A DNA stretch of 64,000 nucleotides from Myxococcales bacterium (GTDB taxonomy: Bacteria > Myxococcota > UBA727 > VGSZ01): assembly GCA_023248635.1 (NCBI GenBank), contig JAHFED010000015.1:25177-89176 (forward strand), read 5' to 3'. Shown here one piece after another: positions 23,129 to 61,900 of the stretch. A program made the translations under genes and the position numbers. The notes beneath the pieces were generated by a model. The model was given only the letters and a program-made list of their open reading frames with translations. It made no database searches and was not told where the DNA came from. How positions within the stretch are numbered: position 1 is the stretch's first letter; every line of letters begins with the position of its first letter.

Positions 23129-24151
23129 ATGCGCTTTGTCGTCGTCGCCGCTGTTCCTGCTCTGCTGCTCATGGCCTGTGCCCAAGGCCAGACCGCAAGC
23201 GAGGGAGAAGGGGACGGAGATGAGGGCGACGCCGAGGGTGAAGGCGAAGGCGCCGCCGAGGGCGAAGGCGAAGGCGAAAGCTCGGTGCCGAGCATCGGCG
23301 GCTGCCCGGTCTTTCCCGCCGACGATCCCTGGAACCAGGACGTCCTCGACGCCGTCGTCGATGAGGATTGGACCACAAGGCTGCAGTCCTTCACCGACGT
23401 CGACCTGCACCCGGATTTCGGCAACGTCGAGGACGAGCACTTCGGCATTCCGATCAATGTCGTGCCCGAGGGAACGACACGGGTCAGCATCTCCTTCGAC
23501 TTCGACGACGAGAGCGACGCGGGTCCCTATCCCATCCCCGATCCCGACGAGGTGCTCGTCGAAGGCGGCAGCGGTCGCGATTGCTCCGGCGACTGTCACA
23601 TCCTCGTCGTCGAGCAAGGGGCCTGCACCCTCTTCGAAGCTTTCGGTTGCCTCTTCGACGGCGGCTGGCGTTGCGGCTCGGGCGCCATCTTCGACATGGC
23701 GCGGGTAAGCGAAGGCCAACGACCCCTGGGCCTCACCTCGGCCGACGCCGCTGGCCTGTCGATCACCGCCGGGCTCGCCCGCTACGACGAAGCCGCTGCC
23801 GGCCTCATCCCTCATGCGCTGCGATTCACGACTCATTGTACGCAGAATCACTTCGTGTCACCGGCGTCCCATCACGCGGTGCCCGAGGGCTGTGATGACG
23901 ATGACGACGGCGCTCCACCCATGGGCTTGAGGGTGCGGCTGCGCTCGGACTTCTCGGAGGTAGGGTTTTCGCCCATTCCCTTGGCCTTCATTCATGCAAT
24001 GAAAATCCATGGCATGATCCTGGCCGACAACGGCAGCGACTTCTTTTTTCAAAGCGCCGACGACCCGCGCTGGACGGACGATCTGGACGAGCTCAAGGAC
24101 ATTCCCTCGTCGGCCTTCGAAGCCGTCGACGTCGGCCTGTTCTTGCCTTGA
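23129..24151 (+). CDS. Lipoprotein with an acidic (Gly-Glu/Asp)n linker and a C-terminal globular domain of unknown function
   Basis: MRFVVVAAVPALLLMAC (lipobox) is followed by [29 protein letters not shown] ~280-aa Cys-containing domain follows (CPVFPADDPWNQD...GMILADNGS...). Confidence 0.6.
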   Translation: MRFVVVAAVPALLLMACAQGQTASEGEGDGDEGDAEGEGEGAAEGEGEGESSVPSIGGCPVFPADDPWNQDVLDAVVDEDWTTRLQSFTDVDLHPDFGNVEDEHFGIPINVVPEGTTRVSISFDFDDESDAGPYPIPDPDEVLVEGGSGRDCSGDCHILVVEQGACTLFEAFGCLFDGGWRCGSGAIFDMARVSEGQRPLGLTSADAAGLSITAGLARYDEAAAGLIPHALRFTTHCTQNHFVSPASHHAVPEGCDDDDDGAPPMGLRVRLRSDFSEVGFSPIPLAFIHAMKIHGMILADNGSDFFFQSADDPRWTDDLDELKDIPSSAFEAVDVGLFLP

Positions 24152-24255
24152 CCTGCTGATGTTCCCGCCGCGTTGCCCAGCGAGGAGGGAGGAGCTTCGG
24201 ATCCACCGCGGCCCGGAGGTCGACGTGGTCCGAGGTTTTCGGGCATCTTCTTGCC

Positions 24256-58770: not shown

Positions 58771-58949
58771 GGCGTGCGCATCGATTTTCGACGGCTGCTG
58801 GCCTGCGCCGAGGCGGCGTTTCTGACCGTGCGGTCGGAGCCTGCCCGACGGCGTTGGGCCTTTCCCGAGACACGAGGGCTGGCGACGTTGGTGGGGGGCC
58901 ACTTGCCGGCCATAGATTCAAGGGCCCGTCACGAGCCCCTTGAGGTCCC

Positions 58950-61900
58950 ATGAAGCGTCTTCTTGTCGTCGCCCTGCCCCTGCTCGCCCTCGCCTGCGGC
59001 CGCGCCACCGACTCTGCCGCAGAAGGAGAAGGAGAAGGAGAAGGAACAGGAGAAGGAGAAGGAGAAGGAGAAGGAACAGGAGAAGGAGAAGGAGAAGGAA
59101 CAGGAGAAGGAACAGGAGAAGGGGAAGGAGAAGGAGAAGGAGAAGGAGAAGGAACAGGAGAAGGGGAAGGAGAAGGAGAAGGAACAGGAGAAGGAGAAGG
59201 AGAAGGAGAAGGAACAGGAGAAGGAGAAGGAACAGGAGAAGGAGAAGGAGAAGGAGAAGGAGAAGGAGAAGGCGGGGGTGGCTCACAAGGTGAGGGTGAG
59301 GGTGAGGGCGATCCGGAGCCTGCCGCTTGTGAGGGGGTCCTGGATTTCTGTGCCAACGGATTGTTCTGTGACGGCTTCGAGACCTGCGACCCCCTCAGCA
59401 TCGCCGCCGACGTTGACGGCTGTGTCTCTGGCCAGCCGCCGGATGCCCTGGACGCCGTCGGCTGTACGGTAGACATCTGCGACGAGGGCGCGGACGTCGG
59501 GGACAACGTCGGCTCGTTCACGCATCAACCCGACAGTGGCTTCTGCAGCGATGGCGTGTTCTGCAACGGCGATGAACAGTGTGCGCCGGGCGCGCCGGGG
59601 GCTGATGCTGTGACCGGCTGTCGTGCCGTTCCCCGCAACCTCGACGATGGCTCGGTGTGCACCACCGACGGTTGCAATGAGGGCGACCATCAGATCACCC
59701 ACGTCGCCGTCGACGTCGACGATGCCGACGCCTGCACCAACGACTTCTGCGACGAGGCAACCGGCGAGTTCCATGAAGACGCCGGGATCGAAGACGACGG
59801 CAACGTGTGCACCCTCGACGGCTGCGACAGCGTCACCGGCCCCACGCACGATCCGATCGATTTCGACGACGACATCGGCTGCACCGTGGACACTTGCGAT
59901 CCCATCACCGGCCTGCGGCACGACCACAACAACGTCGTCTGCGACGACGGTCAATTCTGCAACGGTGATGAGCAGTGTGCACCCGGGTCTTCTGGTGCCA
60001 ACGCGACCACAGGCTGCAAGAGCGTCGGCCGCGCCTTGGACGACGGCTCGGTCTGCACGACGGATGGGTGCGATGAAGAAAACGACCAGATCACCCACGT
60101 CGCTGTCGACGTAGACGATGCCGATGCTTGCACCAACGACTTCTGCGACGATGCGACGGGCGAGTTCCACGAGGTCAGCAGCATCCAAGACGATGACAAT
60201 GTCTGCACCCTCGACGGCTGCGACAGCGTCACCGGCCCCACGCACGATCCCATCGACTTCGACGACGACATCGGTTGCACCGTGGATCATTGCAATCCAA
60301 TCACTGGCCCGAGTCACGACAGCAACAATGGTTTCTGCGACGATGGTCAATTTTGCAACGGTGATGAGCAGTGCGCACCGGGGGCCTCAGGTGCCAATGC
60401 GCTCACCGGTTGCAAGGCCGTCGCCCGCGACCTCAGCGATGGCAGCCTCTGTACAAGCGATGGCTGCGATGAGGAGACCAATCAGATCACGCACACCGCC
60501 GTCGGCACCAACGACAACAACGCCTGCACCGTCGACTCCTGTGATCCGATCGCGGGCGTGTCCCACGTTGGCGTCGATCCCAACGACGGCATCGGCTGCA
60601 CCAACGACAGCTGCGATCCCAGCGCCGGGGTCTCCCATACCCCCAACAACGGCTTCTGCGACGACGCCCTGTTCTGCACTGGTGTCGAGCAATGCTCTCC
60701 CGGCGCGCCCCAAGCCGACGGCGCCTCGGGCTGCTTGGCGGTGCCGCTGCAAACCAACGACAACAACGCCTGCACCACCGACTCCTGCAACGAGGGAGCC
60801 GATCAGGTCACCCACGATCCCATCAACGCCAGCGACGGCGACTCGTGCACTGCCGACTCTTGCGACCCGTCCTCGGGCCCAATTCACGATCCCGGCCCGT
60901 TCACCCACGTCGGGGACTTCACCATCGACGAAGCCAGCGACGTCACCGGGCTGAGCACCAAGTGCTTGGTGACGGGCAGTCTCGTTGTGACAGCGAATGA
61001 TCTCGCCAACCTCTCGCTGCCAGACTTAAGGGCCATCAGCGGGGAGCTCAACGTCGATGGCAACACCACCCTCGAGAGCGTCGAGCTCACGGCACTGCAG
61101 GGCGTTGGCGGCCGGGTCCGCGTCTCCAACAACGCCGCCCTGGAGCAGCTCTCGCTGCCGCTGCTGACGGGGGTTGGGGGAAGCGTCGAGGTCGTCGGCA
61201 ACCCTGTCTTGACCAGCTTCTCGTTCGACGCGCTCTCTGGCCTCGGCGGCGCCATCGACATTTCCAACAACGCGGCGCTGACAACCTTCACGATGGCCGG
61301 GGTGCCGAACGCCGACCGCGTCGACATTCGGACCAATGCGGCGTTGACCAACTTCTCCCTGCCGGCGCTCGCCGACTGCGGCAATTCCATCATTGATTCG
61401 AATGCCGTGCTGACGATCATCGACCTCCCCGAGCTGCAAGGCATCGACAACTTCCAGATCCTCAACAACGCGGGTCTCGCGACCCTGTCGCTGCCGGCCC
61501 TGGAGACGGCGGGCGGCATCTTGGAAGTCTTCAACTGTGACGCCTTGACGACCGCCAGCCTGCCGCTCTTGGCCGCCGTCAACGGGCTCGACCTCCAGGG
61601 CAACCTCGGTCTGACCACCATTTCGCTGCCGGTGCTCGCCACGGCCGCTGGCAACGTCCAGATCGTCGCCAACGACACCCTGCCGAGCGTCTCCCTGCCC
61701 GCGCTCACCAACGTCAACGGCAATCTTCAAATCGATTCCAATGCTGCGCTGACCAGCCTCTCGCTCCCCGTGTTCAACAGCGGCGGGTTCAACGTCTCCG
61801 TCGTCAACGACGACCTCCTGACCAGCATTTCCTTGCCGGTCCTGACCGTCATTTCTCAATCGCTCTTCATCCAAGATGACTCTTCCCTGTCGAACATTTC

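Follow-up and report, generated by a model that had tools for sequence, protein, structure and literature searches.

Acidic glycine-glutamate repeats as probable disordered tethers of four unrelated lipoproteins in a Myxococcales bacterium

The domains of some bacterial lipoproteins are separated from the lipid anchor by low-complexity sequence, and a stretch of genomic DNA from a Myxococcales bacterium (assembly GCA_023248635.1, contig JAHFED010000015.1, positions 25,177 to 89,176), referred to here as the window and comprising all 64 kb that were analyzed, provides a set of four such cases. The four genes, designated g1 to g4, each encode a tract rich in Gly-Glu (GE) dipeptides shortly downstream of a lipoprotein signal sequence. 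These tracts are probably disordered, strongly acidic N-terminal tethers that join a lipidated cysteine to unrelated domains, with the presence and charge of the tether conserved and its sequence drifting by slippage. This article describes the tracts and their mature domains, their counterparts in related lineages, the extent to which their lengths vary, and their relationship to the linkers of better-known systems.

An earlier note on this DNA had reported four lipoprotein genes possessing both a lipobox and a GE linker, and all four are present as described, on the plus strand (Table 1). The N-termini were assessed with a regular expression in the style of PROSITE PS51257, [LIVMFWSTAG](2)-[LIVMFYSTAGCQ]-[AGS]-C, with the cysteine at approximately position 15-35, a basic n-region and an uncharged h-region. 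All four match, with Lys or Arg at positions 2-3 followed by a short uncharged hydrophobic stretch, and the products are therefore predicted, from sequence features, to be lipidated and anchored in a membrane. Between the lipobox cysteine and the Gly-Glu tract lie 4-12 other residues, and the linkers as a whole are practically free of basic residues.

Table 1. Lipoprotein genes of the window and the repeat tracts within them (aa, amino acids; positions are those of the window).
Feature	Position	Strand	Description
g1 lipoprotein gene	23129-24151	+	open reading frame, 340 aa; lipobox LLMAC, Cys17
g1 GE-rich tract	23201-23281	+	27 aa, degenerate; full linker 40 aa, net charge -13
g2 lipoprotein gene	49547-52165	+	open reading frame, 872 aa; lipobox GLAGC, Cys19
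g2 GE tract	49622-49879	+	86 aa, G and E only; full linker 101 aa, net charge -47
g3 lipoprotein gene	55703-56500	+	open reading frame, 265 aa; lipobox LLAAC, Cys16
g3 GE tract	55787-55885	+	33 aa; full linker 48 aa, net charge -19
g4 lipoprotein gene	58950-62009	+	open reading frame, 1019 aa; lipobox LALAC, Cys16
g4 GE/GT tract	59022-59312	+	97 aa; full linker 116 aa, net charge -41

That the linkers are encoded by in-frame hexamer repeats is borne out by the coordinates of the tracts and by the period-6 calls of Tandem Repeats Finder. This program assigned 41.2 copies to g2 (49634-49880, 86% match), 42 copies to g4 (59021-59272, 85% match) and 8.8 copies to g3 (55832-55884, 91% match), while g1 was recognized at periods of 6, 12, and 24 with 71-89% match. 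The g2 tract is composed of (GAAGGC/GAAGGA/GAGGGA/GAAGGT)n, and that of g4 of (GAAGGA)n interspersed with eight ACAGGA units, which account for its eight Gly-Thr dipeptides, followed by GGGGSQ and lastly by (GGTGAG)3. Seven runs of at least four GE dipeptides are found in the window, compared with none in each of 100 trinucleotide-block shuffles. The description of these repeats as near-perfect was nonetheless overstated, given the 85-86% match in the two long tracts and the shortness of the uninterrupted runs: the longest perfect period-6 runs of g2 and g4 span 38 and 39 bp, respectively (6.3-6.5 units), and those of g1 and g3 no more than 3-4 units (3 in g1). Interruptions occur every 1-6 units, as the synonymous variants GAAGGC, GAAGGA, GAGGGA, and GAAGGT, together with ACAGGA, alternate along the tracts. 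Long perfect or near-perfect tracts of the kind that mark contingency loci are absent from g1 to g4. The expectation that slippage of a hexamer maintains the reading frame holds, since the 6-bp unit lies inside a coding region, and for the same reason on/off switching by frameshift or promoter spacing (phase variation) is ruled out. A scan of the window against Rfam returned no matches.

The nucleotide composition of the tracts departs markedly from that of the surrounding genes, in a window with an overall G+C content of 66.7%. GAA provides 34 of the 43 Glu codons in the g2 tract and 34 of 37 in the g4 tract, compared with 32% in background genes; GGA provides 15 of 43 and 39 of 49 Gly codons, respectively, against a background of 9%; and ACA, at 4% in background genes, provides all eight Thr codons of the g4 tract and is not found in that of g2. 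G+C at third codon positions (GC3) is accordingly 0.37 in the g2 tract and 0.09 in the g4 tract, against 0.85 and 0.82, respectively, in the remainder of these genes and approximately 0.83 for the genome. The tracts also contain long exact matches to themselves: in g4, 66 bp recur at an offset of 138 and 48 bp at one of 30, and in g2, 35 bp recur at an offset of 36. Blocks of several units have thus evidently been duplicated whole. Taken together, the anti-genomic codon usage and the long exact internal duplications indicate that the tracts arose by DNA-level amplification of founder units, and not by codon-by-codon selection for a GE peptide. Slippage or unequal recombination of such units would be expected to leave this pattern, and a slippage origin is supported by the same codons and by the 48- and 66-bp duplications.

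Two further properties of the tract DNA may be recorded here. Nine polypurine runs of at least 20 nt, reaching 47 nt, occur in the 64 kb. Every one lies within the tract of g2 or g4, on the coding strand (49784-49878 and 59021-59272), and such sequences have the potential to form triplexes (H-DNA). In addition, the tracts are overlain by long spurious open reading frames in alternative frames or on the opposite strand (48632-50962, 49276-50175, and 58619-59521 on the minus strand; 49674-50504, 58940-59293, and 58963-59472 on the plus strand), the translations of which over the tracts are of the PSPSPS, FSFSFS, KAKEKA, RRRRN, KEKEKE, and LLLF types. These were rejected as genes and regarded as by-products of the repeat, although some have a gene-like GC3 and could therefore mislead gene callers.

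The domains carried by these linkers are not related to one another. With the linkers removed, the best pairwise blastp comparison among g1 to g4 gave E = 0.09 and the Pfam content of the proteins differs, so that the designation of the four as a family fails in the sense of homology, and a homologous family of four is ruled out. The mature domain of g1 (window 23300-24151) comprises approximately 285 residues, starts with the motif GGCPVFPADDPWN, and belongs to a widespread, unnamed, secreted type with 5,696 representative homologues at E<=1e-3 in many taxa and in varied N-terminal contexts; it has no match in Pfam, NCBIfam, or PDB. The mature part of g2 matches, in Pfam and NCBIfam, cysteine-rich acidic repeats of myxobacterial type (TIGR02232, DUF4215) and, after them, an RCC1 beta-propeller (RCC1, PF25390). 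That of g4 contains Dicty_CTDC-type cysteine-rich repeats (PF00526) and a C-terminal region resembling receptor L domains and leucine-rich repeats (PF01030). Both of these larger genes also display in-frame internal duplications that correspond to repeated cysteine-rich modules, namely 192 bp x2.1 with 76% match at 50381-50784 in g2 and 396 bp x2 with 83% match at 59643-60429 in g4. The g3 domain (window 55895-56500), of approximately 200 residues, defines a conserved Myxococcota lipoprotein family with 136 homologues and is without a sequence match in Pfam, NCBIfam, or PDB. Foldseek comparisons of this domain were weak (E 0.02-0.1), yet enriched in proteins of the PD-(D/E)xK nuclease fold (CdiA-CT, SfsA, HamA, Cdn1, and XisH), and the predicted structure is thus possibly that of a secreted nuclease-like fold.

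The searches yielded nothing closely related to the window organism: the neighboring MalQ protein gave only a 34%-identical spirochaete match among the contigs of genome collections, and an exact look-up of MalQ in the collections returned no match. Best protein-match identities were 66% for g3, 52% for g2, and 35% for g4, and the names of the organisms from which homologues derive (Kofleriaceae, Nannocystaceae, Haliangium, and the bradymonad Persicimonas) point to Myxococcota. In the g3 family, 89 of the 121 surveyed sequences could be parsed for both lipobox and domain start. All 89 carry a lipobox followed by a low-complexity linker of 24-124 residues (median 55), and every one of these linkers is net negative, with a median of -0.22 charge per residue. 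Their composition differs by lineage; six are of the GE class, 32 are based on DAG, 12 on DT or DS, and the remaining 39 comprise other types, including (EP)n and G/S/T-rich sequences. The nearest relative found is a metagenome contig, L008 (830-2888), in which a g3 orthologue, a small minus-strand gene, and malQ are arranged in the same order as in window positions 55703-58770, with identities of 63% for g3 and 57% for MalQ. The linker of this orthologue is encoded by a perfect 24-bp x4 repeat that specifies (GEGEGDDV)4.

Comparable linkers are found beyond the g3 family. Lipoproteins make up 98 of the 120 g2 homologues, and their linkers, where present, are (DT)n, (DSTDS)n, (TE)n, (GD)n, or T/S-rich, while one homologue of the g1 domain possesses a lipobox and a (GEGEGAxA)n linker. 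Scanning of metagenomes for (GAAGGC)6 yielded at least 120 stretches (loci L011-L130), and at least 14 further metagenome lipoproteins (14 of the 123 matches listed) have pure G/E runs of 25-68 residues directly after the lipoprotein signal peptide. At least seven of the contigs with GE tracts, several of them encoding lipoproteins, come from a single metagenome sample, Ga0247834. Exact cluster look-up of seven GE-linker lipoproteins from metagenome contigs found none, with the qualification that their assigned start codons possibly differ from the called ones. Judged from these sequence comparisons, the GE linker is a recurrent and lineage-specific version of a general feature. A literature search returned nothing relevant on Gly-Glu repeats and nothing specific on low-complexity linkers in Myxococcota lipoproteins.

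The earlier note had called for prediction of structure and disorder in the linkers, and this was done for g3 with AlphaFold2 and a 60-sequence alignment. Residues 65-265 were modeled with a predicted local distance difference test (pLDDT) score above 95, whereas residues 17-64 scored 49-57 and showed no secondary structure, as expected of a disordered segment. The window linkers are estimated to have contour lengths of approximately 15-44 nm and, as random coils, end-to-end distances of roughly 4-8 nm before expansion by charge repulsion, the latter figures being derived from a scaling law for coil dimensions.

Length variation of the linkers, which the earlier note expected to be dynamic between isolates, can be followed in related lipoproteins. 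In a cluster of g3 orthologues that are 99-100% identical (P0036), one of six contigs has a single additional GAGGGC unit (+6 bp, encoding an extra GE), and the other five, from different samples, are identical in length. Other clusters, at 90% identity or above, show differences of one DAGPE unit, of 0-6 residues in (DT/ET)n, or of two residues in a GD/TE tract, and clusters with non-repetitive linkers exhibit no length change. Internal indels among members of at least 90% identity fall in the repetitive part of the linker, except for two isolated single-residue columns (alignment positions 431 and 483). Among the metagenome (GAAGGC)n loci, groups with identical flanks of 100-150 bp contain 8/9/10 units (L097, L030, and L130, respectively), 11/15 units, and 14/14 units, none of them in a lipoprotein context. 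Whole-unit, in-frame changes of length are thus seen between near-identical strains of related lipoproteins, but most copies are equal in length. Slippage of units is therefore real, but it resembles the usual drift of microsatellites more than a fast, dynamic process, because the long tracts are interrupted and five of the six orthologue contigs have the same length; in g2 and g4, the interruptions are expected to lower the rate of slippage further. The four loci of the window are putatively polymorphic themselves. Rapid, adaptive changes of linker length are improbable. The accommodation of linkers of 24-124 residues by one domain across its orthologues suggests, on comparative grounds, a loose constraint on length. 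Tracts of (GAAGGC)n are common in metagenome contigs and many are situated at contig ends, which suggests that they break short-read assemblies; the copy numbers given here could be slightly wrong if the window itself came from a short-read assembly.

A mechanism consistent with these observations would begin with the conservation of a spacer that is flexible, net negative, and longer than some minimum, and the sequence of which would otherwise be free. Such freedom would allow slippage and unequal recombination, acting on 6-bp units and on multi-unit blocks of 12-138 bp, to build and reshape coding microsatellites repeatedly. The outcome would be a lineage-specific house style, GE being that of the window organism, in which length changes would always be in frame and would arise between strains at ordinary microsatellite rates, damped in the two long tracts by their interruptions. 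By analogy with other lipoproteins, the linkers would serve as spacers and/or as an aid to Lol-dependent sorting, and the g1 to g4 proteins may be located in the outer membrane or at the cell surface.

Several considerations weigh against this interpretation. The preference for GAA recurs in the GE tracts of other lineages, at 11 of 11 Glu codons in L008, 7 of 10 in L009, and 11 of 15 in L010, but 1 of 7 in L002; GAA is thus favored over GAG in several independent high-GC lineages, whereas the Gly codon varies (GGC, GGT, or GGA). A pure founder effect is insufficient to account for this recurrence, and composition or codon choice may therefore be under some selection. Within the window tracts, consecutive GAGGGC units never exceed three, and four or more would form a G-quadruplex motif; avoidance of G-quadruplexes in codon choice may be entertained as an idea. 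The uniformly negative charge of the linkers suggests, moreover, that not any disordered sequence suffices and that charge is selected too. Structure prediction covers g3, and the linkers of g1, g2, and g4 are expected to be disordered from their G/E composition alone. Finally, the assignment of localization, lipidation, and linker function draws on sequence rules established in other phyla and is to that extent provisional.

An alternative is that the polyanionic GE composition is itself functional, as a charged brush, in binding of Ca2+ or other metals, in repulsion of anionic lipopolysaccharide or exopolysaccharide, or in resistance to proteases. The net negative charge of all 89 parsed g3-family linkers is in keeping with this proposal, as are the 13-47 net negative charges and near absence of basic residues in the window linkers, and the retention of a GE composition in the syntenic L008 and in L009 despite different DNA units. 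The orthologues, however, employ differing acidic compositions (DAG, DT, and EP), and some have low-charge G/S/T-rich linkers; no ion-binding motif or fold was predicted in the AlphaFold model of g3, and disordered regions of all kinds commonly contain acidic residues. A specific role for the polyanion is a possibility worth bearing in mind, albeit a rather unlikely one. Unlikelier still is size variation of the contingency type, in which hypermutable hexamers would generate many linker lengths per clone and selection would tune the reach of the domains from the membrane. The repeats of contingency loci and of size-variable lipoproteins tend to be almost perfect, to vary strongly among the cells of a clone, and to be connected with evasion of immunity; in the Vlp-type surface lipoproteins of Mycoplasma, for example, protein size changes when in-frame tandem repeats slip. 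The unit-sized differences between near-identical strains of relatives and the identical-flank loci that differ (8/9/10, or 11 versus 15 units) are what such a system would produce, and perfect runs of 5-6 units do persist inside g2 and g4; however, the identical-flank loci lie outside lipoprotein contexts, and the window tracts, unlike those of Vlp or contingency loci, are interrupted about every 1-6 units, which normally stabilizes repeats, while tracts in relatives are mostly stable in length, with five of six P0036 contigs equal and several clusters invariant. The breadth of linker lengths tolerated by the g3 domain gives no evidence of fine tuning. Metagenome GE tracts often occur at contig ends (6 of the 14 lipoprotein cases listed), which could reflect heterogeneity in populations, yet breaks at repeats are expected from short-read assembly alone.

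The same contig ends bear on the proposition that the tracts or their lengths are assembly artefacts, or are non-coding repeats that happen to be in frame. Low-complexity repeats of approximately 250-290 bp are difficult for short-read assembly, and many metagenome contigs end inside such tracts, including the 6 of 14 lipoprotein cases just mentioned. Against this, all four tracts are in frame in long open reading frames and lie exactly between the lipobox and a conserved domain, orthologues and at least 14 independent metagenome lipoproteins share the layout, and the tracts are internal to a contiguous 64-kb sequence, although the copy numbers as assembled may deviate by some units from the true ones. 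Artefact is consequently a very improbable explanation, and a disordered, acidic tether, free in sequence and drifting by slippage, remains the best account of the four linkers.

Disordered linkers of this kind are well characterized in Escherichia coli, where approximately half the lipoproteins of the outer membrane have a disordered N-terminal linker of more than 22 residues, where RcsF, Pal, and NlpD are mis-sorted upon linker deletion, and where correct sorting requires the length and disorder of the linker and not its sequence, and Gly-Ser repeats can substitute for it in RcsF (El Rayes et al., bioRxiv 10.1101/2021.01.05.425367). The length of the Pal linker is also reported to affect function (PMC12826056). 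Like those of RcsF, Pal, NlpD, and LpoB, the window linkers are located after the lipidated cysteine and sorting residues and before a globular domain, exceed 22 residues (40, 101, 48, and 116 in g1 to g4), and are predicted to be disordered, by pLDDT in g3 and by composition in the others. They resemble them, too, in that presence and length are maintained and sequence is not, as illustrated by the 89 g3 orthologues with their at least four composition classes. Unlike the E. coli linkers, they are much longer (up to approximately 116 residues), strongly acidic, derived from DNA-level tandem hexamers, and found in another phylum.

Repetitive tethers have also been described elsewhere. In Neisseria, the Lip/H.8, Laz, and AniA proteins possess an AAEAP-repeat region of approximately 34-39 residues after the lipobox (PMC5542605). 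Similarities with the window proteins include an imperfect, low-complexity, Glu-containing repeat, a lipid anchor attached to unrelated domains (azurin and nitrite reductase in Neisseria), and the use of a single repeat style by several unrelated lipoproteins of one organism. In contrast to the GE dipeptide, which is more acidic and lacks Pro, the AAEAP pentapeptide is rich in Ala and Pro and forms shorter regions; AAEAP does not occur in the g1 to g4 linkers, which consist of G and E (plus T) only. The Clf/Sdr adhesins of staphylococci contain 25-275 Ser-Asp (SD) dipeptides between anchor and ligand-binding domain, a region proposed to be a wall-spanning spacer (PMC3794999; Hartford et al., 1997, as cited there). 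Here the likeness extends to an acidic dipeptide repeat between anchor and domain that is encoded by short in-frame DNA repeats, whereas the adhesins belong to Gram-positive hosts and use a C-terminal LPXTG sortase anchor in place of an N-terminal lipid, and there is no homology. No LPXTG motif was found at the C-termini examined here (ending in ...GFVPVY and ...VGDCVQ), and the repeat is Gly-Glu and N-terminal, following the lipobox. The GE tethers fall outside the AAEAP and SD families because neither the motifs nor the anchors that define those families are present, and they are best described as a local flavor of a known lipoprotein tether, being neither a new system nor a dedicated hypervariable one.

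In the window, g1 to g4 are dispersed amid unrelated housekeeping genes that include those for MalQ, a CBS-domain protein, esterases, and an AstE-like enzyme. A crude scan indicated about six lipoprotein-like genes, of which g1 to g4 are the clearest; the two others, at 39368-40843 and 56631-57224 on the minus strand, have no GE linker, the former having been caught by the regular-expression scan and the latter, missed by it, recognized by eye from the translated open reading frame MRLLLPVVVALFLPAC. Intergenic regions of the window also contain an element resembling repetitive extragenic palindromic (REP) sequences, at 43087-43342 and additionally at 17365-17450, 22844-22865 (minus strand), and 30848-30869. 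Its 63-bp unit is made up of two hairpins (AATTCACCGACA...TGTCGGTGAATT and TTCATCGCCtggcGGCGATGAA) and is present in four tandem copies between genes; the 22-nt hairpin has seven exact copies in the window, compared with zero expected, and no Rfam match.

In practical terms, GE tracts yield spurious open reading frames, break short-read assemblies, and can give a false impression of homology between unrelated proteins. A more ambitious proposition is that (GE)n constitutes a selected, genome-wide module for lipoprotein display in some Myxococcota, with its brush properties and its GAA-rich, polypurine, G-quadruplex-avoiding codons under selection, and with active diversification of its length in populations serving to adjust how far adhesin-like surface proteins extend, whether at the cell surface or in the periplasm. 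This is improbable; if true, the module would be the equivalent, in Gram-negative bacteria and with a lipid anchor, of the SD-repeat stalk of staphylococci. The present findings require no new mechanism. They provide a sequence-level example, outside the Proteobacteria, of disordered lipoprotein tethers, the principle of which is experimentally established in E. coli, and if linker length matters functionally, these genes would offer a convenient natural length series.

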